From an uncultured delta proteobacterium (GTDB lineage Bacteria; Desulfobacterota; Zymogenia; Zymogenales; Zymogenaceae), in assembly GCA_963735595.1 (NCBI GenBank), contig CAVTLK010000002.1, forward strand, positions 416,001 through 480,000: 64,000 nucleotides of DNA. The letters are read 5' to 3'. Position 1 is the stretch's first letter. Every line of letters begins with the position of its first letter. The notes below the pieces were generated by a model, which worked only from the letters and a program-made list of their open reading frames with translations, ran no database searches and was not told where the DNA came from. Position numbers and translations under genes: made by a program. Positions 6,983 to 46,853 of the stretch are shown here, one piece after another.

Positions 6983-7055
6983 CCGAAAGAGGGGCCGCTG
7001 CCTGACCGGGTGGACGGCCGGCCCGATAGTCGATATTGATAGCTATTCAAGACAG

Positions 7056-7523
7056 GTGATTACCATGAAAAAAAGTGTCTTGCTGCTTTTCATAACGGCC
7101 CTCTTCCTTGCGTCCTGCGGGCTCAAGGCCCCCCCCCTTCCCCCGGAAGCGGTGGTCCCCGAGCGGATAGAAGACCTGAAGGTAAAGATGATCGAGGGCG
7201 GCGTCACCCTTAAATGGACCGTTCCGACGACCAACACGGACGGCACGGCGCTGACCGACCTCGTGGGCTTCAAGGTCCTCAGGAAAGACGTTCCCGACGA
7301 AGACGTGGACTGTCCCCCCTGTACGGGTGAGTTCAACGAGATCGCCGACTTTACCGTTTTGGTCCCGGGAAAGGCGGTCATTTCCGAAGGAGCCGTGCTC
7401 TTTTCCGACACGTCCCTGTCGCCGTTTGTCAAGTATACCTACGTCGTGATCTCCTACAACTCGGCCGGAAACTTCAGCAGGACCTCGAATGACATGACTG
7501 TCTCGCTGACGAGGGTCAAGTGA
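7056..7523 (+). CDS. Lipoprotein (lipobox LASC followed by GLKAPPLPP; fibronectin-III-like beta domain)
   Basis: Signal peptide ending LASC; CGxKxPPLPP motif; position between argH and lysA; CxxC. Confidence 0.75.
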   Translation: MITMKKSVLLLFITALFLASCGLKAPPLPPEAVVPERIEDLKVKMIEGGVTLKWTVPTTNTDGTALTDLVGFKVLRKDVPDEDVDCPPCTGEFNEIADFTVLVPGKAVISEGAVLFSDTSLSPFVKYTYVVISYNSAGNFSRTSNDMTVSLTRVK

Positions 7524-28135: not shown

Positions 28136-30180
28136 ATGGCCTATCAAGAATTAGTCACGAAATTCAACGTGACCTTCAATAAATCCCGGGCGGGGAAGGT
28201 CGCCGTCGTCACTATGGACAACGGCGAGAACTACACCAAGCCCAATACCTTTGGCTACGGCGGCCTGACCTCTCTATCGGAAGCGATCGACAAGGTAAAC
28301 GCGGAAAAGGACGTCAAGGGAATGATGCTCGTGGGCAAGCCCTTCATCTTCGCGGTCGGCGCGGACCTGGACGGCACCGCGGACATCACAGACCGCTGAC
28401 GACGGATACAAGATCGGCAAGGCCGGCCACGACGCCATGAAGAAGATCTACGACCTGAAGATCCCGACGCTGGCGGCCATAAACGGCGCGATCATGGGCG
28501 GCGGTATGGAGATCGCCCTCTACTGCAAGTACCGCAGTGTGTCGGACGCGGTCGGCATCGCCGCGCTGCCGGAATGCTTCCTGGGCCTGGTCCCCGGATG
28601 GGGCGGCACGCAGCTCCTCCCGAAGCTGATCGGACCGGAAAAGGCGATCGAGATCATCATCACCAACCCGCTCAACCGCAACAAGATGATCAAGGCCAAG
28701 GATATGCTGGAATTGGGCATCGCCGACAAGATGTTCCCCAACGGCGAGTTTTACGATATGTCCTTTGATCTCCTGGTCGACATCATCGACGGCAAGGTCA
28801 AGATCGACCGCAAACCGGTAGACTGGTCGAAGCTCGATGATCTCTATAACGACGACCAAGGCGTTCATCGACGGAAACGTACACGGAGCGGCCATCGCCC
28901 CGTACAAGGCGCTCGAACTCATCAAGGGCGCCAAGGACTGGGACCTCAACAAGGGATTTGACGAGGAGAGCAAGGCCCTCGGGGAGCTGATCATCAGCGA
29001 CCAGTGCCGCGCCGGCGTCTACAGCTTTGACCTGGTACAGCGCCGCGCCAAGAAACCGGTCGGCGTGCCGGAAGTCCCGCCCGCAAAGATCGTAAAGATC
29101 GGCGTCATCGGCGCCGGCCTCATGGGCGCGCAGATCGCCACGCTCTTCCTGCAGCGCTACGAGTGCCCGATCGTCATGAAAGACATCAAGCAGGAGTTCG
29201 TCGACAAGGGCCTCAAGTACGTCCACGACCAGGTGGATAAGCTCGTCAAGAAGGGAAAGGTCAACGAGGGCAAGGGGATCTGGCTGAAATCGCTGGTCAG
29301 GGTACGCTGGACTACAAGGACTTTGCCGACTGCAACTACATCATCGAGGCGGTCCTCGAAGAGATGCCCCTCAAGAAAAAGGTCTTTGCCGAGGTTGAGG
29401 CGCACATCAAGCCCGAGACGATTCTGGCCACCAACACCTCGTCGCTTTCCATCACCGAGATGGCAAAAGACCTGAAAAATCCGGAGCGCGTGGTCGGCTT
29501 CCACTTCTTCAACCCCGTCGCGGTGATGCCGCTGCTCGAGATCGTCAAGGGCGGCAAGACCAACGATCGTGACCCTTGCCACCGCGTTTGCGATGGGTAA
29601 GAAGATCAAGAAGACCTCGGTTCTCGTCAAAGACTCCGCGGCCTTCCTGGTCAACCGGCTCCTCATGCGCTGGATGGGCGAGATCATAAAGGTCGTCGAC
29701 GAAGGCAAGAACTCGTTCAAGGAGATCGACGAATACTGCGTGACCCTCGGTTTCCCGATGACCCCGTTCGCCCTGCTGGCGCTCGTGGGACCCGCCGTGG
29801 GCCTGCACGTAGCCGAGACGCTCAATAGGGCCTTCGGCGACCGCTTCTACATCTCCCCCGGATTTAAGAAACTGGTCGAGCTCAAGAAACCGGGTATCTA
29901 CGATTGGAACGGCAACGAGGATCCGGACGTAGTGGCCAACTGGCCGCGCGGCTCAAAGACCTTCACCCAGCAGGAGGTCATTGACCGCTTCCTGACGGGG
30001 GTGACAGAAGAGTGCCGCATGATCCTGGACGAGGGCGTTGTCAGTAACGCAAAGGATATCGATACCTGCATGATCATGGGTGCGGGCTGGCCCTTCTTCA
30101 TGGGCGGCATCACCAAGTACCTCGATCAGAAGGGATACTCCAAGAAGGTGACGGGAAAACTGCTGGCCAAAGACGAGTAG
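28136..30180 (+). CDS. fadB: Enoyl-CoA hydratase / 3-hydroxyacyl-CoA dehydrogenase multifunctional subunit (multiple frameshifts)
   Basis: FAVGADL, GGGMEIAL, LPECFLGLVPGWGG, GVIGAGLMG, ATNTSSLSI, GFHFFNPV and GAGWPF. Confidence 0.88.
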
Positions 30181-31493: not shown

Positions 31494-32253
31494 TTATTTC
31501 GTCCTATCCGGTTTTTCATCCGCTACCCGATAATAGAAAACCGTAACCGCAATAATCGCCGCGATCGTGATGAGCTGATAGGTCGTGAGCGTCCCGAAGA
31601 ACCACGCCCGCTCCGGGGCCCCTCGGAAGGGGTCGATGATCGAGCGGGAGGTGACGTACATCAGGACGAACAGGAGGATCAGCTCACCCCGGAAGGCGGC
31701 CGTCTTCCGGCGGATCAAGAGCGTTACGACGATGACGAGGTTTGCGACAAGGTAGTAGACCTGGGTCGGGTGGAGCGGGATATTGAGCGGCGCGGCCTTC
31801 GATTCGGTAAAGACGATCCGCCCAGGGCAGTTCGGTGGGGGCGCCCCAGCAGCAGCCGGCCATGAGACAGCCGACGCGTCCGACGGCCACGATCAGGGCC
31901 AGCGCCGGGGCGGCCGTGTCGAGCCACTGCCAGGGATCGAGCCTTCTTTTACGAAACAGGATCAGCGCCACGATCAGCGCCCCAAAGAGAGCCCCCTGGA
32001 ACGACCAGCCGGAGGCGATGGGGGAGGGATGCCGGATGAACTGTGCCCAGTTGGTCAGGATGAACAGGAGCTTTGCCCCGACCAGGGCCGACGGCAGCAT
32101 CCAGAGGATGATATCGACACCCGTCCACGCCGAAAGGCCGTCGCGACGGGCCAGGACGAGGAAGAGGACCACGCCGGCAAGGTAACCCGCCGTTATGAAA
32201 AAGCCGTACGACCAGACGATGTGGCCGTCGATGGTAAAGAGGATGGGATGCAT
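31494..32253 (-). CDS. lgt: Prolipoprotein diacylglyceryl transferase (frameshifted near 31820 and 31720)
   Basis: MHPILF..SYG, GAKL, GRVGCLMAGCCWG.PT.LPW, HPTQVY and R.IIDPFRG. Confidence 0.85.
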
Positions 32254-32436
32254 AACTAATAGCTGCTACCTGATATCGTACGGGATGACACTGGCAGGCA
32301 AGAATCGCTATTGACTCGTGCAATTTCGAGGGTGGCACTGAGAAGCGAAGCTTGTCAGTGATCCGAACTATTCCCAACAGCGGGAACGAACCTTCCGGTT
32401 GTACGAGGCACGCGATGGTACGGAGGATCGGGTGCA

Positions 32437-34526
32437 TTATGGCTTCTTGCCGGTTACCCGCGTTTTGCCCCCGGCGTGATTTGCACTGAGTGCCGACTTT
32501 ACGGCCTTTGCGATCGATTCTACGTCGATACGGTCCATGCAGTGGTTGGGTCCCATGGGGCAGGGCGTTCCGTAGATGCCGCTCCTTGTTTCCGTCAGGC
32601 ATCCGTCCGGGTTCTGGCAGATCCGGTGGCCGACGAGGGTTGTCTGGCCCGGCCAGCCGTAGGTGGCGGGGTCTGTCGCCCCCCAGAGGGTTACGGCGGG
32701 CGTGCCGACCAGCCGGGCGATGTGGACAAAGAGGTTATCGGTCGTGACGATCAGGTCGAACCGGGCCGCCAGCCCGATTGCCTCCCTGACGGTGGTGACG
32801 CCCAGGAGGCTGTAGGCCCCGCGGATATACCGGTCGCGCGCGGCGCCCGCCTGGGCGACGAAGATTCCCTCGGCGGAGAGGCGTTTGACCAGCTCTTCCC
32901 ACTGGGCGATGACATGTCTTTGCGGGGCGAGAGCGACCAGGGGCAGATCAGGACGTTTTTATCGGAAAGGGGGATGCTGTTGATGAGCAGCTCGTCGATC
33001 GACCGGCTCAAACGGCACGAAGAGGCGTTCGGCGGCCGGCATCGGGACGCCGAGCATCTCGGCAAGAATCTTGAAGGGGCGGCCGTTCGGTCCGCCGAAG
33101 TCCGGGGTGATCCCAGTAGGCGGTCCCGACGACGGCCGATCCGGGCGGCGGGTTGCCGATCCGTTCGACGGCGGGGTGGCCCTTGAGGATCTCGCCGTAG
33201 GTGGTTCGGGTGACCAGAGAGAAACGCCGCCGCGGGTCCTGATCGACGGCGGCCTTCAGGACGCCCGAAAGGATGATCGTGTCACCGTAGCCGCCGAAGG
33301 GGCTGATCCAGAGGGGACGGTTCTTGGGCGGCGCCCTGAACGGGACGACCGTCGCTGGCCGGCGGGACGGGAGGCTCGGGGACGCTTCGGTCCGTGCGGT
33401 CCGGGGACGCCGCCGGGCCGTCCGGCTCGAAGCGGACGCCGGTGATCGGCTCGAAGTACTTCTCGATGAACCCCTTCTTGTAGGCGCACAGGGGCGATTT
33501 TCTCATCCAGTCGCCGGTCTCGGCGTAGCTGTCCAGCGGGCAGCCGCCGTGGCAGACAGTCCAGAGGCGGCACCCCTTGCACTCACCCTGTTCGAGGTGC
33601 AGCTGGCGGGCGCGATACATCTCCTTTTGGGGGTCTTTGAGGACGCGTGTCTATCGAATTTTCGTGGATGTGGCCGTAGTCCAGCAGGCCCCAGTCCGAC
33701 GAGCGGCCGCACTGAGAATACCGGCCGGCGGGTCCCACGGACATGTGGGTATCGGCGCACATCCCCGACTCGGCGCATTCCAGGCCGCCCTTTCTCTCGA
33801 TGATCGCCTCCACAAACGACATGAAGGGACGAATCCTCGGGAAGCGATCCCGGCGCTCCCACCAGACCGGAAAAATCGCCCCGAGGAACTCCACGAATTC
33901 TTCCGGGGTTATCGCAAGCTTGGCGACCTTGCGCTTGAAGGAGTAGATCGAGTTGAACTTGACGGAGCCGGTTTTGTTGAGGTTGGTCAGAAAGTAGAAG
34001 AGGTCAAGGGGGGCGTCCAGAGAGAGCTTCGTGACGACGTAGATCATCCCCCAATTGATGTCGTTTTCCTCCAGAAGGCCCAGCGCGTCCATGAAACGCC
34101 GGTTATAGGCCGCCGAGTCGATAGTGCTGCCCAGACCCCGGACGTCGGGGATCGGGTCGTAGCTCGTGCTGACGCCGTTGATGCCGAGCGTCCGAAAGAC
34201 CTCGATATATTCCGGCGACAGCAGGGTAATGTTGGTCTGGATATCGTGGGAGATGCGGTCCTTTCGTGCCGGGGCAGTGCCGTTGTTCGAATTCATGGGC
34301 CTTCAGGAAATAGTCGGGCCCCAGCAGCAGCGGCTCGCCGCCGTGCCAGATGATCTGGAACCGCTCGTCCGGGCGATCGGCGAGGTATTCATTGACCCGA
34401 ACAAAGAACCGCTCCAGGGTCTCCAGCGGCAGCCGTGACGCCCTTTTCGCGGTCTTTCCTGACCACGTCGCAGTAGGCGCAGTTGCCGTTGCACGCCTCG
34501 GTCGGTTTAAATATGACGGTGGTCAT
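32437..34526 (-). CDS. Radical SAM/SPASM peptide maturase with a C-terminal glycosyltransferase family 9 domain (reconstructed over frameshifts)
   Basis: RBS gaaaggag and ATG 34526: MTTVIFKPTEACNGNCAYC; WHGGEPLL, IQTN; SPASM CAESGMC..SQCGR..CKGCRLWTVCHGGCP..LC; then WISPFGGYGDTIILS, DLIVTTDNLFVHIA..GTPAVTLWGATDP..CMDRIDV. Confidence 0.8.
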
Positions 34527-35390
34527 GTCGCTCCTTTCTCGGTTCATCGCGCCGTTTGTCGAGGTCATCCAGGAGCGCGATCATCTCGACGGAGAAGGCC
34601 GCGCATCCCGTCCTGTCCGTCCCGTTTCGATCGAATTTCCCCAGGCAGACCTTCCATCCCGGGCAGCGCGAGCAGGGGTGATATGCGAGAAACAGGCGCC
34701 GGCGCACGTCGATCCGCTCCCGGTACGTCTCGGAATCGATAACTGTCGTCCAGCCGCTCGATATCGTTCTCGATGAAGCTTTCGTCGAGAAGTTCCCGGC
34801 GCGAGAGGGCGATGCGGCCGTCCGGGTCCAGGTGGAGGAAGTCCTTGGGGTCGTCGAAGAAGACCGGGCCCCACTCGATCCATCCGTCTGACTGGTAACG
34901 CCCCGCAATGGTCGAAAAGGGCTCGATCGGGCCGTGGGGTACGGCTGTCGACCAGGGAATAAGTCATGAGGTCGGCCAAGCCTTCCCAATCGACGGGTCC
35001 CGCGATCCCCGAAGACCGCCGCACATCGGATGTTGACCGACGAAAGAATCCTGAGGGCGGTGAGATTCCCGGGATCGTCGGCCGAAAGGTAAATCATGGG
35101 GTTCAGATCCCGAACCGTTCGCAGCCGCCGGGACGAGGCCGCGGAACTGCGCCATCTTCGGGGCAAAGACGGCAAGCTTGATGCCCGGCCCAGGCGTCGT
35201 CGAAGGGGACTTCGTCCAGGGGGATGCGAGAATCCAGGATGACCATCGAAAGCCGGTTGGCCGATGACCTCACGCACTCGGCGGCCCTGACGACGTCTGA
35301 CGGCTCATCGACCCGTACCGCCAGGACACGCTCGGATAAGTCGGCGATCAGCGTCTCGCTAAACGGCAATACAAGGTTTGGAAAGCCCAC
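34507..35390 (-). CDS. Uncharacterised partner protein with a SPASM-like Cys cluster and no visible CxxxCxxC (frameshifted)
   Basis: Overlaps both flanking rSAM genes; C-terminal HPCSRCPGWKVCLGKF..GC. Confidence 0.6.
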
Positions 35391-36393
35391 GTTCTATCTC
35401 CTGGAGCCGAACCGGCGCCTCGCCGACAAAGCGGTTCATGACCTGGCAGGCCCCGCCGCCCGCACACCGGCCCTCTTCCCGATGGATACAACCGTCACAC
35501 TCTTCGTAAATCCCGGCGGTCTCGGAGCGGACGCGGTCGAAGAGCCCCTGGTAGAAGTCGTGTACTTCCTTCATCGAGTTGAACTCGAAGAGGGAGCCGC
35601 TTGTGAAATCCCGAGAGCGGAAAGCATGCATAGACGTTCAGATCGGGGGTTAGGTCGATGGCCGGCCCGCAGCCGAATTTGAATTTCGCCGACTGGCGCA
35701 TAAGCCAGCCGAGCTGTTCGTCGGTAAACCCGCAGAGCGGGAAACCGCAGTCCAGACCCCGGCTTGATATCGAACCGATCCAGCGCCGGCCGAAATGAAT
35801 AGAGGCGGTCGATAACCGTCCGCACGTCGTCGGGTTTAATGATAGACGCTCTCAACTCCCGGCATCGGCGAGGCCAGGCCCAGCCGGATATGCCGGTGCA
35901 TGCCGTATCGCGCAATCAGGTCAAAGAGGAACCCGATGTCAAAATCGGTTCGATAGATGTTGAAGCCCGGCGTGCACCACGGCCCCATGAGGGAAAGGAA
36001 CTTCGCGATGCGCGTGCCCTCCTGCTTGGGGGCCGGGGTCTGATCGGGATTATTGAGGTTTACGACGAAGCTCAGCCGCGCGGGCGGCACCGCCGACAGG
36101 TGATCGGCCAGCTCCCTGAGACGCGCATCGGCCATAATGCCGCTGGTAAACACCGTTACGTGGAACTTGCGCTCGATAAGGAAGAGCACCATATCGACGA
36201 ACTCCGGGTGGAGGGTCGGCTCGCCGCCGAGCAGCGAAAGGCGATCCTGATCGGACGCGGCCAGAAAATCGGCAAGGTAGATCAGGTTTTCCCAGTTGAC
36301 AATGTCGCCCGAGGGGGACCCCTCCATCTCCCGCTTGGCAAAGCAGTAGGGGCAGGAACGGACGCAGCGGGATGTCATCAGGAGGTTGGTCAC
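35359..36393 (-). CDS. Radical SAM protein with a C-terminal SPASM/twitch-like region (frameshifted)
   Basis: RBS gaggag and GTG; CVRSCPYC, LLGGEPTLHP, DCGFPLC, GCGPAIDL..ACFPLS and CDGCIHREEGRCAGG. Confidence 0.85.
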
Positions 36394-36520: not shown

Positions 36521-36883
36521 TTAGTTGTGCCAAATTATATTGCCGTAATTTTCGGAGTAATCGTAATAGTTCTGGTAATCGGAGTAGTTGTAATAATCGG
36601 AGTAGTTGTAATAATCAGAATAATTATAGTAGTATGCTGAATATTCGGTGTACATGTTTGAATAGTTGTAGTACGAATAGTTGTAATAGGAGTTACTGTA
36701 GCCGTTCACATACCCGCCGGTACACTCGTCCTGCCCCTGGGTAACGACTCCGGCGACGCCAAGGGTGCCGACCAGGGCGATCCCCTTGGCCATGCGCTTC
36801 ATCGCCTCCCGCCGGGTAAGCGTTTCCTTGTTTGTGGTGTCGATCTCTTGAGTTTTCTTCTTTGTCTTCTTTTCGTCGTTCAT
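36521..36883 (-). CDS. Putative RiPP precursor 1: twin-arginine-like leader plus Tyr-x-Asn/Asp repeat core (120 aa)
   Basis: RBS ggagaagac; TLTRREAMK, a hydrophobic stretch, QGQDEC, then about 25 Tyr in YYN/YSD/YSN triplets; directly upstream of the rSAM genes. Confidence 0.8.
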   Translation of the reverse strand: MNDEKKTKKKTQEIDTTNKETLTRREAMKRMAKGIALVGTLGVAGVVTQGQDECTGGYVNGYSNSYYNYSYYNYSNMYTEYSAYYYNYSDYYNYSDYYNYSDYQNYYDYSENYGNIIWHN

Positions 36884-37041
36884 CGTCTTCTCCTTGCAGA
36901 GCCGTCTTATCGTAAAGAGGAAGGCATGACAGGTCGAGGGTGGTGAATACTCAACGTGTCGCTCCGCCGGGACTTATATTACATGTAAGCTTCTTATCTT
37001 CCTGACTCCTGCAAGCCCGTCTTGCATACCGTTACTGTCAT

Positions 37042-37070
37042 AGTTTATTACCAGTCATGATGTGAGTCAA
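37042..37070 (-). promoter_or_regulatory. Putative sigma70 promoter for precursor 1 and the maturase genes
   Basis: TTGACT-17 nt-TAAACT on the minus strand. Confidence 0.5.
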
Positions 37071-37132
37071 GCAAATTGGTAAGTATCTTTAGTATAATAG
37101 TCGGAATTAAGGCCTGTCCCAGCAAAAAATAT

Positions 37133-37156
37133 AAAGGGGCCCGTTCAGGCCCCTTT
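37133..37156 (-). terminator. Terminator after precursor 2
   Basis: aaaggggcc-loop-ggccccttt hairpin followed on the minus strand by an AT/T-rich tract. Confidence 0.7.
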
Positions 37157-37177
37157 GGCTTGTCTATGTAACCCCGG

Positions 37178-37540
37178 TTACCAGGGGTGATAGTTGAAGT
37201 ACCCGCCGCCATGATTGTAATAATTGTAGTAGTCGCTGTAGTTGTAGTAGTCGCTGTACGTGTTGTAGTAATTATAGTACCCGTTGCTATAATTATAGTA
37301 CGCGTTCGAATAATCATAGTAGCCGGCATTGGAGTAGTTGTAGTAGCCCGGAGGGACCAGATTCACGTACCCGCCGGAGCATTCGTCCTGCCCCTGGGTA
37401 ACGACCCCGGCGACGCCGAGCGTGCCGACCAGGGCGATCCCCTTGGCCATGCGCTTCATCGCCTCGCGCCGGGAGAGTCTTTCGTCTTTCCTGACCTGGG
37501 CGGCCCCCGTTTCGTCTTTTTTCTTCTTCTTATCTTCCAT
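37178..37540 (-). CDS. Putative RiPP precursor 2, paralog of precursor 1 (120 aa from ATG 37540)
   Basis: Same RBS ggagaagac; identical RREAMKRMAKGIALVGTLGVAGVVTQGQDEC segment; core of 15 Y-x-N/D triplets. Confidence 0.8.
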   Translation of the reverse strand: MEDKKKKKDETGAAQVRKDERLSRREAMKRMAKGIALVGTLGVAGVVTQGQDECSGGYVNLVPPGYYNYSNAGYYDYSNAYYNYSNGYYNYYNTYSDYYNYSDYYNYYNHGGGYFNYHPW

Positions 37541-37678: not shown

Positions 37679-37708
37679 ATTTTAACTATAAGTGAACTAT
37701 TCTGTCAA
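37679..37708 (-). promoter_or_regulatory. Putative sigma70 promoter for precursor 2
   Basis: TTGACA-18 nt-TAAAAT on the minus strand in an AT-rich intergenic region. Confidence 0.55.
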
Positions 37709-37951: not shown

Positions 37952-38989
37952 ATGAAAAAGGGAGATAAATACGGCGCCCACCGGGTGATTGAGCCCAAGG
38001 GGGTGCTTCCCCAGGCGGCCGATAAAATCGATAACACCATGGAGATCTACGATAACGAGATCCTCGTTTCGGTCAAGACACTCAACGTTGATTCGGCCTC
38101 GTTCACGCAGATCGAAGAAGAGGCCGGTCACGATACGGGCAAGATCGGCCGGATCATCATGGACACCGTAACCCGCAGGGGCAAGCAGCACAACCCGGTC
38201 ACCGGGTCCGGGGGGATGTTCATGGGGACGATCGAACAGGTCGGCCCGGCGCTCAAAGGCACGGTTTCCATTAAGCCGGGGGATTTTATCGCGTCGCTGG
38301 TTTCCCTCTCGACGACACCGCTGGTTATCGAAAAGATCGTCGAGATCAGGCCGGACCGGGACCAGGTGGATATCATCGGCAAGGCGATCCTCTTTGAGAG
38401 CGGGATCTACGTCAAACTCCCCGAAGACATGCCGCAGTCGGTTTCGCTGGCGGTGCTTGATGTTGCCGGGGCCGCCGCCCAGACGGCGAAACTCGTCAAA
38501 CCGGGGGATACCGTATTCATCATCGGCGCCGGGGGTAAATCGGGGATGCTGTGCGCCTACGAGGCCCAGCGGCGGGCGGGCGTCACCGGCATGGTTATCG
38601 GCACCGGACACTCCGCCGAGAGCACCAGGCGGATCAGAGAACTCGGCTTTTGCGATCACGTTATCCAGGTGAACGCCACCAATCCACTGGAGGTGGAGCG
38701 CGAAGTAAGCGAACTAACCGGCGGACGGATGGCAGATGTCACCATCAATTGTGTCAATATCCCCAACACGGAGATGGGCTCCATCGTCGCCACGAAAAAC
38801 GACGGGCTTATCTATTTCTTCTCGATGGCGACGAGCTTTACCAAGGCCGCCCTGGGCGCGGAGGGTATCGGCTCGGACGCTACCATGATTATCGGCAACG
38901 GCTATACCAAGGGCCATGCCGAGATCTCTCTCAATATCCTGAGGGAATGCTCGGCGCTGAGAGAGATATTTATGAAGCTCTATGCGTGA
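37952..38989 (+). CDS. kdd: L-erythro-3,5-diaminohexanoate dehydrogenase
   Basis: KYGAHRVIEPKGVLPQAA, RGKQHNPVTGSGGM, LDVAGA, FFSMATSFTKAALGAEG and GNGYTKGHA. Confidence 0.93.
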   Translation: MKKGDKYGAHRVIEPKGVLPQAADKIDNTMEIYDNEILVSVKTLNVDSASFTQIEEEAGHDTGKIGRIIMDTVTRRGKQHNPVTGSGGMFMGTIEQVGPALKGTVSIKPGDFIASLVSLSTTPLVIEKIVEIRPDRDQVDIIGKAILFESGIYVKLPEDMPQSVSLAVLDVAGAAAQTAKLVKPGDTVFIIGAGGKSGMLCAYEAQRRAGVTGMVIGTGHSAESTRRIRELGFCDHVIQVNATNPLEVEREVSELTGGRMADVTINCVNIPNTEMGSIVATKNDGLIYFFSMATSFTKAALGAEGIGSDATMIIGNGYTKGHAEISLNILRECSALREIFMKLYA

Positions 38990-40022
38990 GACGCTGCTCG
39001 ACCTGGTCGAGAAATCGGGGGCGCGGATAATCTCGGTCGTGGGTCTGGCAAAGAACACGGGCAAGACCACGACGCTTATCTACCTCGCCGGGCGCCTCGG
39101 CGCTGAGCCCGGGGTGCTGGCCCTGACCTCCACTGGGCGTGACGGCGAGGCAATCGACGAGATCACTCGTAGAGAAAAGCCGTCCGTCACCGTACAGGAG
39201 GGGACCCTGGCGACCGTCGGCCAGCGGTCACTGGACCAGGGGCCGGGCGTATCGGTGGTGCGCGATACGCCTTACGCAACCGCCACCGGCGGGATCGTGA
39301 TCGTTCGGGCCGAGAAAACCGCCCGGGTTGTCCTCGAAGGACCGGCGACGGCCACCGAGATGGGGCGGCTGGTGACCGACCTCATCGAGAAGGACGGCGC
39401 CCGATACGTTATCATAGACGGGTCGCTGGACCGGATCGCCGCCGCGGCCCCCGGCGTCTCTGACGGGGTGATCCTTGCGGTGGGGGCGATCCTGGGGCCC
39501 GATATGGAAACGGCGGTGCGAAAGACCCGGCACGCGGTGGACCTCTTTGTGACCGGGGAAGCGCCCGTGGCCGTACCCGGTGATATCGGCGTCTCCCGGC
39601 TCTGCGCGGTAAGCGCCGACGGGGCGGATTGGGCGATACGCGAGGGATCGGTAATCACCGACCTTTCCCCGGTCATGGGGATGCTGGAAAAGGGCGCCCG
39701 GTATCTCTATGTCTCTGGAGCGCTTACCGACGAGGTGCTGGAGGCGTTTACGGAGCGCGGCCTTTTCCCGGTCGTGATCGCGCAGGACGCAACACGGCTG
39801 TTTGCGTCGGGCCGGTCACTGGCCCGCTACACCGCGGGCGGCGGCGCCGTGAGGGTTAAACGGCGCATCAGGCTCATCGCGCTGACGGTCAATCCCCATA
39901 ACCCGGAGGGGATCGATTTTGACCCCGACGATTTCCTGGCGGCGATGAGAGCGGCGATACCGGACGTGCCGGTTTTTGATATTGTGCGGGAGGAAGCGCG
40001 TGGAATCCAAACTCGGCCTTGA
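38982..40022 (+). CDS. kamB: Lysine 5,6-aminomutase reactivase subunit (KamB-like)
   Basis: VGLAKNTGKTT, LTSTGRDGE..D, IDGSLDR and TVNP; located immediately before kamD. Confidence 0.65.
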   Translation: MRETLLDLVEKSGARIISVVGLAKNTGKTTTLIYLAGRLGAEPGVLALTSTGRDGEAIDEITRREKPSVTVQEGTLATVGQRSLDQGPGVSVVRDTPYATATGGIVIVRAEKTARVVLEGPATATEMGRLVTDLIEKDGARYVIIDGSLDRIAAAAPGVSDGVILAVGAILGPDMETAVRKTRHAVDLFVTGEAPVAVPGDIGVSRLCAVSADGADWAIREGSVITDLSPVMGMLEKGARYLYVSGALTDEVLEAFTERGLFPVVIAQDATRLFASGRSLARYTAGGGAVRVKRRIRLIALTVNPHNPEGIDFDPDDFLAAMRAAIPDVPVFDIVREEARGIQTRP

Positions 40023-41538
40023 CAGGGCGATTATCGACGAATGCCGGGGCTTTGCGGAAAAGATCTCCGACGACCTCATGGGGTTTATCCGGTCTCACAC
40101 GACCGACAGCGTGGAGCGGGCGGTAACACGGCTCCTGGGGCTGGACGGGACCGACCGGATCGGCACCCCGTATCCGAACGTGCTGATGGACGCGGTCAAG
40201 CAGTCGCGCGGGCTCGGTGAGGGAGCGGCGGCGGCATCGGCCGACCTCATCGCGCACACAGGCGGGGCACTTATTGACGCCGTCAAAATGATCGCAGAAA
40301 AAAAGCTCAGACTTGCGGACGTTCCGGTGCTCGACAGAAACAGGCGGATTACGATTATTAGGCCCCTGGCCCAGGCGGGGCTTGCGAGGATCAAGGACCG
40401 TGTCGATGAGCGAAACCGCCTGAGGGCGGCCTATCCGATGAGCGGGCCCCCGCTCCTCTACGTGATTGTAGCCACCGGCAACATCCACGAGGACGTGACC
40501 CAGGCGGTCAGCGCCGTGAAGAACGGGGCCGACTGCATCGCCGTTATACGCTCAACGGCCCAGAGCCTTCTGGATTATGTCCCGTACGGCGCGACCACCG
40601 AGGGCTTCGGCGGCACCTACGCCACCCAGGAAAACTTCAGGATCATGCGCAGCGCACTGGACGAAGCGATGGTGCGGGAGGGCCGCTATATTAACCTCGT
40701 CAACTACGCCTCGGGCCTCTGCATGCCGGAGATCGCGGCTGCCGCGGCCTTCGAGCGGCTGGATATGCTGCTCAACGACTCGATGTACGGTATTATCTTT
40801 CGCAACATCAATACCTACCGCACGTTCGTCGACCAGTATTTTTCCCGGATGATCAATGCCAAGGCCGATATCATCATCAATACCGGCGAGGACAACTACC
40901 TGACCACGGCCGACGCCGTGGAGAAGGCCCATACGGTGCTGGCAAGCGATTTCCTCAACGAGTCGTTCGCGTATAAATCGGGGCTCCCGCCGCGCCTCAT
41001 GGGGCTGGGCCACGCCTTCGAGATTGACCCCTCGCTCGAGGGGGGCTTCCTGATGGAGCTCGCCCAGGCGCAGATGATCAGGGAGATCTTCCCCGAGGCC
41101 CCCATCAAGTATATGCCCCCCACCAAACACGTGACCGGGAACGTATTCCAGACGCACCTCGTGGACATGATGTTTAACGTCTGCTCCGTGATGACCGGCC
41201 AATCCATCCACCTGCTGGGCATGCTGACCGAGGCTATTCATACCCCGTTTGTCGGCGACCGGTACCTGTCCCTATCGGGGGCGCGCTACGCCAAGAACAA
41301 TATGCGCGGGATCGGCGACGAAATCACGTTTGCGCCGGACGGGTTCATCCGGAGGCGGGCGCGGGAGGTCCTCGGCAAGGCCCACGTAATGCTGGCCGAG
41401 ATCGTCGATATCGGGCTGGTGGAGGCGCTGGCCCGGGGGATGTTTGCTGATATCCACCGGGACCCCAAGGGGGGCAAGGGGATCGACGGCGTGGCCGAAA
41501 AGGGCGAGAACTATTACAACCCGTTTGCCGAGGCATGA
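40000..41538 (+). CDS. kamD: Lysine 5,6-aminomutase alpha subunit
   Basis: YVIVATGNIHEDV, AVIRSTAQSLLDYVPYGATTEGFGGTYATQENFRIMR and NYASGLCMPEIA. Confidence 0.95.
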   Translation: MESKLGLDRAIIDECRGFAEKISDDLMGFIRSHTTDSVERAVTRLLGLDGTDRIGTPYPNVLMDAVKQSRGLGEGAAAASADLIAHTGGALIDAVKMIAEKKLRLADVPVLDRNRRITIIRPLAQAGLARIKDRVDERNRLRAAYPMSGPPLLYVIVATGNIHEDVTQAVSAVKNGADCIAVIRSTAQSLLDYVPYGATTEGFGGTYATQENFRIMRSALDEAMVREGRYINLVNYASGLCMPEIAAAAAFERLDMLLNDSMYGIIFRNINTYRTFVDQYFSRMINAKADIIINTGEDNYLTTADAVEKAHTVLASDFLNESFAYKSGLPPRLMGLGHAFEIDPSLEGGFLMELAQAQMIREIFPEAPIKYMPPTKHVTGNVFQTHLVDMMFNVCSVMTGQSIHLLGMLTEAIHTPFVGDRYLSLSGARYAKNNMRGIGDEITFAPDGFIRRRAREVLGKAHVMLAEIVDIGLVEALARGMFADIHRDPKGGKGIDGVAEKGENYYNPFAEA

Positions 41539-41539
41539 A

Positions 41540-42298
41540 ATGACGGCGCAGGTAAAGAAAGGAATCGTAAAACCGTACGGCGACGCCATGGGGGACGGCG
41601 CCGTGCAGGTCTCGTTCACCCTTCCGGGCGTCTCCGGTGAGATAGCCGAGGAGGCCGCCCGCCGCCTGGCCGGCGAGATGGGTATAGACGACCCGTTCGT
41701 GAGTAACTGCGACGACATCGGTTCCGGGATGACCTTTATCGTCCTCTACGGGAGGCTCCGGCACTCGGTCGACATCACCCGGATCAAGGGGTTTGACCGG
41801 GCCGCCGAAAAGATACCGAACATGAAGGTCATCGACCATATGATCGAAGAGCGGCTGGGCCGCGCGATCACGGCGGTCGGGGCGTGCATCGAGAGCGACG
41901 CCCATACCGTCGGGATCGACGCTATCATGAACATGAAGGGCTATGCCGGGGATTACGGGCTGGAGCGGTATAAGAACTTCCGGGCGATCAACATGGGCGC
42001 CCAGGTAAGCGCCGAGGAGGTCGTGCGAGAGGCGGTCCGGGAAAAGGCCGACGCCATCCTCGTCTCCCAGGTGGTGACCCAGAAGGAGGTCCACGTCAGG
42101 AATCTCACCCGACTGGTGGACCTGCTGGAGGCCGAGCACGTGCGCGATCGCGTTATCCTCATCGTCGGGGGGCCGCGGATCACCCGGGAGCTTGCAAAGG
42201 AGCTCGGCTTTGACGGCGGATTCGGCCGGGGTACGCTGCCGTCGCACGTGGCCTGGTTTATCCTGAACAGGCTCATCGAAAAGGAGGGCAGGGCATGA
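41540..42298 (+). CDS. kamE: Lysine 5,6-aminomutase beta subunit (B12-binding)
   Basis: KPYGD..GDG.VQVSFTLP, DAHTVGIDAIMNMKG and LVSQVVTQK. Confidence 0.95.
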   Translation: MTAQVKKGIVKPYGDAMGDGAVQVSFTLPGVSGEIAEEAARRLAGEMGIDDPFVSNCDDIGSGMTFIVLYGRLRHSVDITRIKGFDRAAEKIPNMKVIDHMIEERLGRAITAVGACIESDAHTVGIDAIMNMKGYAGDYGLERYKNFRAINMGAQVSAEEVVREAVREKADAILVSQVVTQKEVHVRNLTRLVDLLEAEHVRDRVILIVGGPRITRELAKELGFDGGFGRGTLPSHVAWFILNRLIEKEGRA

Positions 42299-43419
42299 AG
42301 ACAACCCCCAGCGCATTGGAGCGTTTTTACGTCCAGTGGGAGTTTGCGGTCGGAACCAATATCAGCGCCTCGTGCGGCGCCGAGACCACGACGGCGGAAC
42401 TCCTTGCGATGGCGGGGAAAGACGAGAGGGAGAAATACCTCTCGCTGGGGCTCGGGTACCGGGAGAACAAGGGCGACGCTCAGCTCAGGGATTTAATCGC
42501 CGCCGAGTACAAGAACCTTTCCGCCGATGATATACAGCTCGCCTGCGGGGGCTCGGAGGCCATCTTCCTGTTGATGCATACCGAGCTTAATCCGGGAGAC
42601 CGGATCATAGCCGAGGCGCCGCTCTACCAGACGCTCTTTCAGATAGCCGAGGATCACGACGTTGAAGTGGAGTGGCTCCCCCTCCTTGAATCGGAGGATT
42701 ACGTGCCGGACCCGGGACGCCTCGCCGACCTGCTCAAGAAAAAGCCGGCGCAGATGGTCGTCATCAATCATCCCCACAGCCCCACCGGATCGATCCTGAC
42801 CGAAGGGCTGCTTGCCGAGATCGTGGGGATCTGCGACCGATACGGTGCGCTCCTGGTCTCCGACGAGGTCTATTGGGGGGCCTTTTATGACGAGGCGGAC
42901 GTTGTCCCCCATGCTGCCGATCTCGCCGAAAACGTCATGACCATCGGCGACATGACCAAGCCCTACGGGCTGGGGGGGCTCAGGATCGGGTGGCTCGCCT
43001 CCCGGAGGAACGATATCCTGGAGGAGGCCTCGGCCCTCAAGGACTACACGACGATGTGTGCGGCGGGCCCGTCCGAGCACCTGGCGATACTGGCCCTCAC
43101 GCACAAAGAAGCGATCCTTGAACGCAACGTCGGGATTGCCGCCGAGAACATCGCGCTGTTCGACGATATCCTAAAGGACTCCGGTGGAAGGCTCTCCTGG
43201 GTGAGGCCGAGGGGCGGATACACGGGGTTTGTCTCGCTCAACGTGCCGGGGATGACAACGCGGGATCTCGCGCTGGGCCTCATCAAGGAAAAGGATGTCC
43301 TCATCCTGCCGGGTGACGTCTTCGGGGACGGCGGCAAGTTCCGGATCGGGGTGGGGACAAAGCGGGACGAGTTCGCCCGCGGAACCGTGGCCCTGGCGGA
43401 TTTCGTGTCGCGCCTGTAA
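42295..43419 (+). CDS. Class I/II PLP-dependent aminotransferase
   Basis: INHPHSPTG, SDEVY and MTKPYGLGGLRIGW. Confidence 0.88.
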   Translation: MKTTPSALERFYVQWEFAVGTNISASCGAETTTAELLAMAGKDEREKYLSLGLGYRENKGDAQLRDLIAAEYKNLSADDIQLACGGSEAIFLLMHTELNPGDRIIAEAPLYQTLFQIAEDHDVEVEWLPLLESEDYVPDPGRLADLLKKKPAQMVVINHPHSPTGSILTEGLLAEIVGICDRYGALLVSDEVYWGAFYDEADVVPHAADLAENVMTIGDMTKPYGLGGLRIGWLASRRNDILEEASALKDYTTMCAAGPSEHLAILALTHKEAILERNVGIAAENIALFDDILKDSGGRLSWVRPRGGYTGFVSLNVPGMTTRDLALGLIKEKDVLILPGDVFGDGGKFRIGVGTKRDEFARGTVALADFVSRL

Positions 43420-43507
43420 GGGCCGGCGCCCGAGGTGGCGCGACGCACTTTTTGACAGCACTTGCGCCGGCCGGCGGCGATGGTGTATGATGCATAGTCG
43501 GCAATAA

Positions 43508-43930
43508 ATGGATTTTCATATGACGGTTACGTATACGGGTATTGAATCGACGATCCGCCTCAGGATGAGCAGCGCCGACGCCCATTACGGCGGCGGGCTG
43601 GTTGACGGGGCCGGGATACTGGCGCTCTTCGGCGACGTGGCCACGGAGCTGCTTATCCGGCTCGACGGCGACGAGGGGCTCTTCCTGCGCTACGACGAGG
43701 TCGAGTTCATCGCCCCGGTATACGAGGGGGACTACATCGAGGCGACAGGCACGATAACGAAGGTCGGCGGCACCTCGCGGACGATTGAATTTTGCGCCCG
43801 CAAGGTGGTGGCCGCACGGCGGGACGTCGGCGCTTCGGCGGCCGATTTCCTGCCCGAGCCGGTGATCGTTACCCGGGCCAAGGGCGTCTGCGTTACTCCG
43901 AAAGGGCTTCAGCGGACGATAAAGACATAA
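43508..43930 (+). CDS. kal: 3-aminobutyryl-CoA ammonia-lyase (hotdog fold)
   Basis: [37 protein letters not shown]. Confidence 0.9.
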
Positions 43931-43945
43931 CGGGAGGTTTTACCG

Positions 43946-45327
43946 ATGGCCTACATGAACTATGAGCTGGTTTCAAAAAAGACCGAACGGATCACGACCA
44001 AGTTCCGTAAGATAGCGACCGATATCCCCGTGCCGGAGTCGATACCGATACTCAAGGAGCTGAGAAAATACGAGCCGATCTCCATGAGCGGCCAGCCTTT
44101 GGTCGTGTGGGATAACGCTGAGAACTTCACGGTGAGGGACCGCTGGGGCAATAAGTGGATCGACTTTTCATCCGGTGTGCTCGTGGCCAACTGCGGGCAC
44201 CTCCCGCCGGAGATGAAGCGGGCGCTGGTGGACCAGATCAACTCGGGCATGATCCACTCCTACTGCTTCCCCAACGAGCCGCGGGCACAGCTCGTCAAGA
44301 AGATGATCGAGATCGCCCCGAAAGGGATGAACAAGGTCTTTCTGCTGACCACCGGCGCCGAAGCCACGGAAAACGCCATCAAGCTGGCCAAGACGTGGGG
44401 AATGCGCACCGCGGGGCCGAACAAGAACGTGATCGTAACCTTTACCGGGTCTTTTCACGGCCGCACCCTCGGGTCGCAGCTGGCAGGCGGCATCCCGGCC
44501 CTGAAAGAGTGGATCGGCAGGCTCGACCCCACGTTTGTCAACGTCCCGTTCCCGGACGGGTATCGATTCGAGGATACGAGTTTTGACGTCTTCGAGAAGA
44601 GCCTCAAGGATCAGGGAATCAGCAAGGATCGGGTCTGCGGCGTGATGATGGAATCCTACCAGGGCGGCATCGCCGGGTTTTACCCCGAGCAGTACGTCAA
44701 AAAGCTGCGGAAATGGTGCGAAGGCGCCGGTGCGCTGTTGATCGACGACGAGGTGCAGGCAGGCTTCGGGAGATCGGGAAAGCTCTTTTCCATCGAACAC
44801 TACGGCGTCGTTCCCGATATCATCTGCTGCGGCAAGGGGATGAGCGGGGGGCTGCCGATATCGGCGGTCATCGGCAACTCGAAATTCATGGATATCTACG
44901 GGCCGGGGGAGATGACCTCAACCCACAGCGGCAACCCGCTGACCTGCCGGGCGGCGCTCACGAGCATCGAGCTGCTCCAGAAGAACAAGCTTGTCGAAAA
45001 CGCCGCAAAGATGGGCAAAATCCTTCATGACGAGCTCAATAAGCTTAAAGACGAGCATCCGATATCATCGGCCGGGTCCAGGGCAAGGGACTGCTGGCGG
45101 CGATGCTCTTTGTCAAGAAAGGGACCAAGGAGCCGGACCACCCGCTGGCTTTCGCCGTGGTGGAAAGGTGTATCCAGACGGGCGTTATGCTCTACGCGCC
45201 CCTGGGCCCGGGCGGCGGCACCGTAAAGGTCAACCCGCCGTTGACTATCACGCCGGAGCCGCTGATGGAGGGGATCTCGGTGATCGCCGAGGCGATCCGG
45301 GCGGCGCGAAAGGAATTGAAGAGGTAA
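43946..45327 (+). CDS. Class III aminotransferase (frameshift near 45060)
   Basis: DFSSGVLVANCGH, TGAEATENAIK, FHGRTLG, DEVQAGFGRSG and GKGMSGG. Confidence 0.9.
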
Positions 45328-45570
45328 CACCGGGATGGGGAATATGCCCACGGGCGGAACCCGTATGCCATGAACGTCTGGTTTATCAAGATGCTGAGTC
45401 TTTTGCGGATCGGGACCGGCGGATACAAGTCCGGGGCCTATAAACCGGATTGATGCCGCTCGCGCGCGGATAGGCACTTCGTACGCGGACGAGGGCGCCG
45501 AGGACCGCGGGGGCGTTTTCTCGGCGGGCCACGGCTACCGGCCTTTTACCTATGATGAACGGACAAACCC

Positions 45571-46853
45571 ATGAGAAACTATAAAGACATAGAATTATTC
45601 AAGGACGCCACCGAAAAGGAGTGGGGCGACTGGCGCTGGCACGTCAAGAACCGCATCACCACCGTCGAGGCCCTCAAGAAGGTCATCAACCTGACTGCGG
45701 AGGAGGAGGAGGGGATCAGGACGACGCTGGCGCGCTTTCGCATGGCCATTTCCCCCTACTACGCCTCCCTGATGGATCCCGACGACGGCTGCTGCCCCAT
45801 TCGTAAGCAGGCCAGTGCCCACGATCAGCGAGACATGTAAGGCGCCGGAGGACCTCGAAGACCCGCTGAGCGAGGACGAGGACTCCCCGGTGGCGGGCCT
45901 CACGCACCGCTACCCCGACCGGGTCCTCTTCCAGGTCACCGACCAGTGCACCATGTACTGCCGGCACTGCACGCGGCGGCGCATGGTCGGCGTCAACGAC
46001 AGGATGCGCAGTCAAAGACCGAGCTTTCGGCCGATATCGACTACATCCGGGAGACGCCGGAGGTCAGGGACGTGCTCCTCTCGGGCGGCGATCCGCTCAC
46101 GCTGGTCGACGACCAGATCGAGTGGATCATCGCCGAGCTCCGGAAGATCCCCCACGTGGAGATCATCCGCATCGGCTCCCGGACGCCGGTGGTGCTGCCC
46201 CAGCGTATCACCCCCGAGCTGGTCGATATGCTCACCAAGTACCACCCGATCTGGTTCAACACCCACTTCAACCATCCCGAACGAGATCACGGAGGAATCG
46301 GCCCGGGCCTGCGACCTGTCTGACCCGCGGGGGCATCCCCGTCGGCAACCAGTCGGTGCTGCTGCGCGGCGTCAACGACTGCATCCACGTCATGAAGGCG
46401 CTCGTCCACGGTCTCATGAAGATCCGGGTGCGGCCCTACTACCTGTACCAGTGCGACCTCTCGGTGGGCATCGAGCACTTCCGCACCTCGGTGGGCAAGG
46501 GCATCGAGATCATTGAGCGGCTGCGCGGCCACACGTCCGGCCTGGCGATCCCCACCTTCGTGGTGGACGCCCCGGGCGGCGGCGGCAAGATCCCGGTCAT
46601 GCCCCAGTACATGATATCCCGCAGCGACCACAAGATCATCTTCCGCAACTACGAGGGATTCATATCTTCGTACACGGAACCGGTGATAGACCACGAGGAA
46701 TGCCCGGTCTGCAAGCAGATGCGAGCGAAAGGGGGTCAAGAGCATCGGCATCGAAAAGCTCTTCACCGGCGAGGCATCATCGCTGCGGCCCACGGACTCC
46801 GTGCGCGGACAAGCGCAAGAAGAGCCAGTTCCACGCATAAAGAGATTCCGTAA
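45571..46853 (+). CDS. kamA: Lysine 2,3-aminomutase (radical SAM; several frameshifts)
   Basis: [45 protein letters not shown] and [12 protein letters not shown]. Confidence 0.95.

Follow-up and report, generated by a model that had tools for sequence, protein, structure and literature searches.

What are the two small tyrosine-rich proteins encoded at this locus, and what does the spacing of their aromatic residues say about their fate? The window, by which we mean the whole stretch of 64,000 nucleotides that was analysed, comes from an uncultured delta proteobacterium and contains these precursor features:

37178-37540, minus strand: precursor 2 (P2) open reading frame, 120 aa
37379..37540, minus strand: P2 leader, with a charged N-terminus, a twin-arginine motif, a hydrophobic stretch and a conserved Cys54
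37181..37378, minus strand: P2 core, 66 aa, 15 Y-x-N/D triplets
36521-36883, minus strand: precursor 1 (P1) open reading frame, 120 aa
36722..36883, minus strand: P1 leader, matching that of P2 at 91 of 99 nt between the twin arginines and the cysteine
36524..36721, minus strand: P1 core, 66 aa, 14 Y-x-N/D triplets and a final WHN
37679..37708, minus strand: sigma70-like promoter candidate upstream of P2, 11 of 12 consensus positions (consensus match only)
37133..37156, minus strand: terminator-like hairpin after P2 (consensus match only)

Each 66-residue core begins after Cys54 and holds 24-25 tyrosines, with triplets making up 45 of the 66 residues. Every N or D of the P2 core (15 of 15) and all but one of those in P1 (15 of 16) have an aromatic residue two positions before them; composition-preserving shuffles of the two cores gave means of 5.3 and 5.6 motifs and reached 15 in 0 of 100,000 trials. 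Repeating the parse of P2 returned exactly the 15 triplets listed in an earlier note on this DNA, and P1, for which the note had given about 14 together with YTE, YSA and YSE variants, yielded 14 Y-x-N/D triplets plus the WHN, with all three variants present. The note had also described a strict three-residue periodicity. Here the i/i+2 register is real and the period is not: junctions between triplets are spacer-free in 8 of 14 cases per core (the longest contiguous runs being 8 triplets in P1 and 5 in P2) and the remaining junctions span 1-7 residues. Because these spacers reset the phase, motif starts occupy all three phases modulo 3, lag-3 identity is 0.24-0.27, and what is constant is the register. 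The net charges of the two cores are -3 and -6.

Slippage is one way in which such sequences might arise; the repeats would then be low-complexity tracts, and the small proteins would have no link to the enzymes encoded nearby. There are recent exact unit duplications in some homologs (G006, L064), and one paralog is an orphan on another contig, as slippage would allow. The earlier note had argued instead that the spacers differ while the triplet is kept, as expected from selection, and our data bear this out: (i) in P1 and P2 identical triplets are written with different synonymous codons, serine being drawn from both codon families; (ii) from the twin arginines to the cysteine the P1 and P2 leaders are identical at 91 of 99 nt, compared with 126 of 214 aligned bases in the cores; and (iii) on collecting homologs, as the note had proposed, we found the i/i+2 register kept, with an aromatic residue at -2 of 523 of 589 N/D. 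The last figure comes from a protein search that returned 37 homologs, of which one frameshifted record was dropped and 36 were analysed. Furthermore, the register is conserved across phyla despite different spacers, and a precursor adjoins the enzyme triad described below in 58 of 80 loci. Slippage is thus largely refuted and, in our judgement, scarcely credible.

Cores of the 36 close homologs hold 7-19 triplets, with a median of 14.5. The triplet's middle position varies freely (Y, S, N, V, A, G, T and others). Of 481 triplet junctions, 259 lack a spacer. A genome search found precursor matches in 8 of 9 same-family genomes and in 0 of 51 other same-phylum genomes searched; several paralogs per genome are seen, with up to 7 matches in G005, and one genus of the family has Y-x-R next to Y-x-N. 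A third paralog, of 147 aa and with the same leader, lies at G000:C5:553544-553987 (L001:9545-9988) on the minus strand, far from any rSAM gene; G002 and G003 have orphans at a comparable site. An unrelated open reading frame near position 67689 of G000:C3 (plus strand) ends in a Tyr/Asp/Arg-rich repeat tail.

The register extends beyond the family. In 54 distant cores, which include kin and are not independent, the fraction found two residues after an aromatic is 0.78 for N, 0.85 for D and 0.62 for S, compared with 0.42-0.44 in shuffled cores; G, A, T, I and L are depleted at this position, and V and P are not. Cores fall into N/D only, Ser only and mixed sub-types, the largest motif counts being 34 N/D (L093) and 50 Ser (L051), and three fit the register poorly (L047, L069, L105). 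Long charged tails rich in His, Glu, Arg and Asp follow a shorter Tyr core in some paralogs (P0034, P0035 and P0037; L024:5734-6189 and 7033-7392). Among viral contigs, 20 pattern matches were found and 0 confirmed.

What, then, acts on this motif? The precursors lead an operon in which they are followed by rSAM1, protein X, an rSAM2-GT9 fusion and an Lgt paralog:

35359..36393, minus strand: rSAM1, a radical SAM protein with CxxxCxxC and SPASM-like cysteines and no assignable family; three 1-nt insertions in the assembly
34507..35390, minus strand: protein X, a pseudo-rSAM with an rSAM/SPASM fold and no CxxxCxxC; five 1-nt insertions in the assembly
32437..34526, minus strand: rSAM2/SPASM-GT9 glycosyltransferase fusion with a WHGGE motif; frameshifted; best matches DynA, anSME and DarE
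32238..32423, minus strand: extra 184-bp stretch between the GT9 stop codon and lgt, containing a duplicated lgt start; skipped by contigs of four other runs
31494..32253, minus strand: third, divergent Lgt paralog (prolipoprotein diacylglyceryl transferase); one frameshift here

A search of genomes with rSAM1 yielded 94 relatives; 80 loci were kept. By record titles these cover 12 bacterial phyla, including Desulfobacterota, Bacteroidota and Spirochaetota, plus a single archaeal bin, every record being metagenome-assembled or uncultured; the archaeal case (L109) is a complete cassette with precursor on a contig titled Thorarchaeota archaeon, where misbinning is possible. X lies beside rSAM1 in 78 of the 80 loci and rSAM2 is present in 75, the absent cases being contig ends. 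GT9 is found in 49 loci (fused in 13), and Lgt in 4, all of them from the family of the window. Precursors were screened by leader motif and tyrosine density, not by the triplet; the strict screen recovered 66 precursors in the 58 loci mentioned above and a looser one added 7 loci. A profile search for X in G001, G004 and G009 (fragmented genomes, 88-94% complete) gave no match. The motif would mark the substrate of a widespread, undescribed rSAM system, and P1 and P2 are very likely substrates of the adjacent cassette. We found no description of this family in open-access papers; the sequence networks of Sugiyama et al. 2022 may list it.

With regard to genomic context, a lysine fermentation gene cluster (kdd and neighbours, 37952-46853) runs divergently from the precursors, and the same neighbourhood occurs in G001, G002, G003 and G005. 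Several Ser-type clusters carry a second rSAM2-like gene (L050:12895-14007, L052:12015-13121, L053:9084-9821, L054:11965-12807). A defence-island context was considered and rejected: PADLOC on 78 neighbours and 4 system proteins gave mostly generic-domain matches, and Pfam on 89 neighbours gave one HipA, one PIN and one integrase, with no clear defence-island signal.

In the window all four enzyme genes (rSAM1, X, rSAM2-GT9 and Lgt) carry frameshifts, mostly through single-base insertions. Contigs of four other runs (12 of 73 matches listed) and relatives lack these insertions; frames for cassette enzymes are open in G002, G005, G006, G007 and G008, the rSAM2-GT9 of relatives is a single open reading frame of ~700 aa, and rSAM1 differs from its G003 counterpart by 38 synonymous, 2 non-synonymous and 0 nonsense changes. 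Assembly error is the likelier explanation. Frameshifts are also present at 28136-30180 (fadB-like), 43946-45324 (class III aminotransferase) and 45562-46812 (kamA), a pointer to assembly indels across the window. It is also possible that the copy in this strain is dead or decaying, because all four of its enzyme genes are broken, and more densely than housekeeping genes, of which 3 of 9 are broken.

No cassette enzyme passed any NCBIfam family cut-off. rSAM2 has CxxxCxxC and a SPASM match, and DynA is its top or second match (132-142 bits, cut-off 450); the model for the anaerobic sulfatase maturase (anSME) follows at 124-134 bits and DarE at 119 bits at best (cut-off 650), with DarW, AmcB, YhhB, GrrM and FxsB also among the top models. 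Against the five 3-CyFE models compared (XyeB, GrrM, FxsB, AmcB and YhhB) it scored 39-89 bits (cut-offs 310-450). Its relatives of solved structure are anSME and the cyclophane synthase ChlB. Since anSME scores similarly and no cut-off is passed, this placement leaves the chemistry unfixed. The earlier note had matched the triplet to the substrate logic of cyclophane-forming rSAMs; a DynA/DarE/triceptide-like rSAM/SPASM gene is indeed present in the operon, but it scores equally on anSME and under every cut-off. For rSAM1 the matches, to several families, are confined to the N-terminal barrel.

X has 137 relatives, and among the matches listed (120) all names given were 'hypothetical protein'. 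Its structure model from 44 sequences reached pLDDT 95 (an earlier one from 5 sequences, pLDDT 64), with ChlB as the best match (Z 13.5, rmsd 4.1, 270 aligned) ahead of 5wgg (Z 12.5), anSME (12.3) and TigE (12.0), and Foldseek agreed on an rSAM/SPASM fold, with a modest E of 0.004. We call X a pseudo-rSAM because it matches this fold and lacks CxxxCxxC; three C-terminal cysteines are invariant. Profile comparison connected X to rSAM2 through the C-terminal Cys stretch alone and gave no match to rSAM1.

We favor the possibility that this cassette makes aromatic cross-links from i to i+2, which we regard as probable, with rSAM2 the likelier catalyst. rSAM2 would abstract the beta-hydrogen of Asn or Asp and couple the Cbeta to the Tyr ring two residues upstream, and by acting repeatedly along the core it would form triceptide-type rings, up to 15 per chain. 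X may serve as a non-catalytic substrate-binding or scaffold partner, rSAM1 may make a second modification, and GT9 would optionally add a sugar, heptose being likeliest. Precedent comes from the triceptides, where Asn, Asp and Ser are reported as third residues of characterized members and YxdB is reported to act on Tyr-x-Asp and to link Tyr-C3 to Asp-Cbeta (PMC11002830).

Counting against rings, an i/i+2 pattern is also given by one face of a beta-strand. The precursor could be modified and exported with no aryl-Cbeta ring. It might undergo epimerisation or desaturation, acquire an ether or Tyr-Tyr link, or receive a one-carbon change of the HXS type, and the register would then reflect substrate recognition or the beta-strand face of a Tyr/Asn-ladder fibre. 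Peptidase_S74 is a chaperone domain of trimeric fibres, and its fusion to some precursors suggests such a fibre; rSAM2 is equally close to anSME and DynA, and rSAM1 has no assigned family. In addition, HxsA has aromatic-x-Ser repeats (five H-x-S) and two rSAMs, yet it is reported to carry a single +8 Da change and not a -2 Da ring (PMC13128918), so we are cautious about assuming rings here. What this explanation leaves unaccounted for is that the third position is restricted to N, D and S, with Gly and Thr/Ile depleted and the middle residue free, as Cbeta cross-linking needs, that rSAM2 and X are both ChlB-like, and that rSAM2 is far from HxsB (37-59 bits, cut-off 370). We think a chemistry other than an aryl-Cbeta ring rather unlikely.

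A further possibility is that the same rings are made and the core is then cut into many small diffusible cyclophane peptides, as in a multi-core triceptide. Characterized triceptides are reported to be proteolytically matured before the first ring (PMC12912966), and the short repeated units and several paralogs per genome (up to the 7 matches of G005) would fit. This is difficult to reconcile with the 259 of 481 junctions that lack a spacer, or with the 89 neighbours scanned (of 249 listed), among which there was no recurrent peptidase or exporter family, though a protease encoded elsewhere in the genome could act; moreover, the lipoboxes, the Tat genes and the domains fused at the C-terminus suggest that the product is retained at full length. 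We consider a cut core improbable.

To return to cross-linking by rSAM2, one possible handle on its specificity is column 194: all 15 Ser-type loci have L/I there, and all 15 N/D-type loci have Y/T/R. We treat it as a lead only, because on the tree the switch occurs independently just two or three times and a column of rSAM1 tells Ser-type from N/D-type almost as well.

The earlier note had also seen potential Ser/Asn glycosylation sites in the repeated N-Y-S, of which there are 5 in P1 and 3 in P2. The proposal finds no support for Asn: the transferase is a GT9, and 23 of 47 GT9-linked cores have no N-x-S/T sequon, the mean being 2.3 sequons per core without GT9 and 1.7 with it. Nor do we claim Ser as the GT9 acceptor; its fraction is 0.18 with GT9 and 0.07 without, but nearest-neighbour pairs differ little. 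L039 and L040 have GT9 with Ser at only 1-5% of the core. In L084 an RfaE-like adenylyltransferase gene follows GT9, and G000 encodes RfaE.

Where would the product go? The leader consists of a twin-Arg motif and a hydrophobic stretch followed by a processing site that varies as in signal peptides: 14 of 66 leaders terminate in a lipobox-type Cys, the pattern having matched 18 before hand filtering took out four, and an Ala-x-Ala-like site closes many of the others. RR is present in 62 of 66 leaders, a count that is circular because the precursor screen used the RR motif. The leaders matched the TAT model only below its cut-off, and the canonical Tat motif has Phe where the leader here has Ala. 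The leader nevertheless looks like a true Tat signal. In the spirochaete loci L092, L099 and L104 the precursor is directly followed by tatA and tatC, in L084 tatC lies 0.7 kb after GT9, and in 3 of these 4 genomes the cluster tatC is the sole TatC match; G000 has a TatC of its own. We consider it very likely that the precursor is exported by Tat, and the product probably stays in the cell envelope. After tatA-tatC comes a long protein with a TatB-like N-terminus (L092:13092-14726, L099:13212-14912, L104:13228-14859), with a weak TatB match in L099 and a radical SAM domain in L092 and L099. Three precursors have C-terminal fusions, two to Peptidase_S74 and one to Lcl_C (L083:12902-13669, L088:8604-9353, L110:7615-8586); PKD-domain proteins follow the Peptidase_S74-fused ones.

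The extra Lgt raises the question of a lipid anchor. Genome G000 carries lgt in three copies. In all 8 own-family genomes with a visible 3' end the third lies after GT9; it is fused to GT9 in G002, and in G006, where the cluster occupies another neighbourhood, it is found there too. Lipobox and Tat comparisons here use the canonical consensus; by this measure the window precursors have no canonical lipobox directly after the hydrophobic region, and the conserved Cys54 is preceded by a polar Gln-Asp-Glu stretch. Y26, H103, R143, N146, G154 and R239 are reported as essential residues of Lgt, with N146C reported in natural Lgts and mixed results for H103Q (PMC13251419); in an alignment of the cluster Lgt from five relatives, Y26, R143, G154 and R239 are kept, Cys stands at N146, and the place of H103 is taken by Q, A or L. 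A dedicated lipidation step would be plausible, and the extra Lgt of this lineage may anchor the chain at Cys54, though we lean slightly against that. G004, which yielded no Y-x-N cluster, has a related third Lgt behind two CXXX-repeat precursors (L118:3-1028 and 1344-2099, G004:C277), the complete one having an RR leader. This suggests that the third-Lgt clade may serve several rSAM-target classes.

Taken together, we favor on balance, and with modest confidence, triceptide-type stapling by the rSAM cassette followed by Tat export to the envelope. What we observe is the i/i+2 register, an operon that is conserved, the folds of its enzymes, a signal-like leader and, in some clusters, tat genes; from there we infer every chemical step. 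The modified, rigid chain would need Tat because Tat carries folded cargo; it would remain in the envelope, possibly lipid-anchored in this lineage, as a rigid polyaromatic envelope or surface element. A bolder version, which is tentative and strikes us as rather unlikely in its entirety, is a new class of envelope polymer: Tat-exported, lipid-anchored and sugar-decorated chains of 15-50 Tyr cyclophanes, made by a three-protein maturase that includes a pseudo-enzyme and served by their own Tat translocase or their own Lgt (with a non-canonical lipobox), forming a rigid structure of the surface or periplasm, perhaps a phage barrier like that of HXS, in a dozen mostly uncultured phyla. If this were true, cyclophane stapling would build long rigid envelope proteins, beyond small antibiotics, and RiPP chemistry, Tat export, lipidation and glycosylation would be joined in a single pathway. 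The natural variants (Y-x-N/D only, Y-x-S only, Y-x-R and mixed) lend themselves to mapping the choice of third residue, and rSAM2 is a candidate processive multi-ring enzyme for peptide engineering.

How does the cassette compare with known systems? The CXXX-repeat rSAM target system (TIGR04114-04119) shares a weak leader match (TIGR04117, E 0.024) and, in G004, the related third Lgt behind its precursors, but the core here has no Cys repeats, and rSAM1, rSAM2 and X all fall under the cut-offs of the CXXX maturase models. The darobactin/dynobactin maturases (DarE, DynA, DarW) are linked to rSAM2 by the DynA match; scores are far under the cut-offs of 450-650, however, the core is long and multi-repeat rather than one short core of fused rings, and there is no Dar-type transporter among the neighbours scanned.

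The triceptides/3-CyFEs (XyeB, GrrM/OscB, FxsB/ChlB, YxdB, YhhB, AmcB) are alike in the aromatic-X-X motif, in N, D or S as the third residue in the members described, and in a ChlB-related rSAM/SPASM maturase encoded with the precursor (75 of 80 loci here). They differ in that no cut-off of the named maturases compared is reached here, that the precursors described have 1-3 motifs against 7-19 per close homolog, and that the present cassette adds a second rSAM, a pseudo-rSAM, GT9, Lgt and an export-type leader.

In function, the nearest analogue is the HXS system (HxsA-D), described as a periplasmic antiphage effector (PMC13128918). As reported there, two rSAMs and an accessory protein accompany an exported aromatic-x-Ser repeat protein of the envelope; here two rSAM genes, a signal-like leader and, in four loci, tat genes would fit a similar design. 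The proteins themselves are distant: HxsB models gave 16-59 bits (cut-off 370) and HxsC 18 (cut-off 268), there was no HxsD match, and the repeats are His-x-Ser there and Tyr-x-Asn/Asp here, with one distant precursor hitting HxsA4 at 22 bits (cut-off 55). The HXS repeats are described as basic and DNA-binding, whereas the cores here are often acidic. HXS is also reported to be 99.7% Pseudomonadota, whereas the present cassette occurs in Desulfobacterota, Bacteroidota, Spirochaetota and others. If the proposed reading is right, the family would offer a direct test of HXS-like envelope effectors beyond Proteobacteria.
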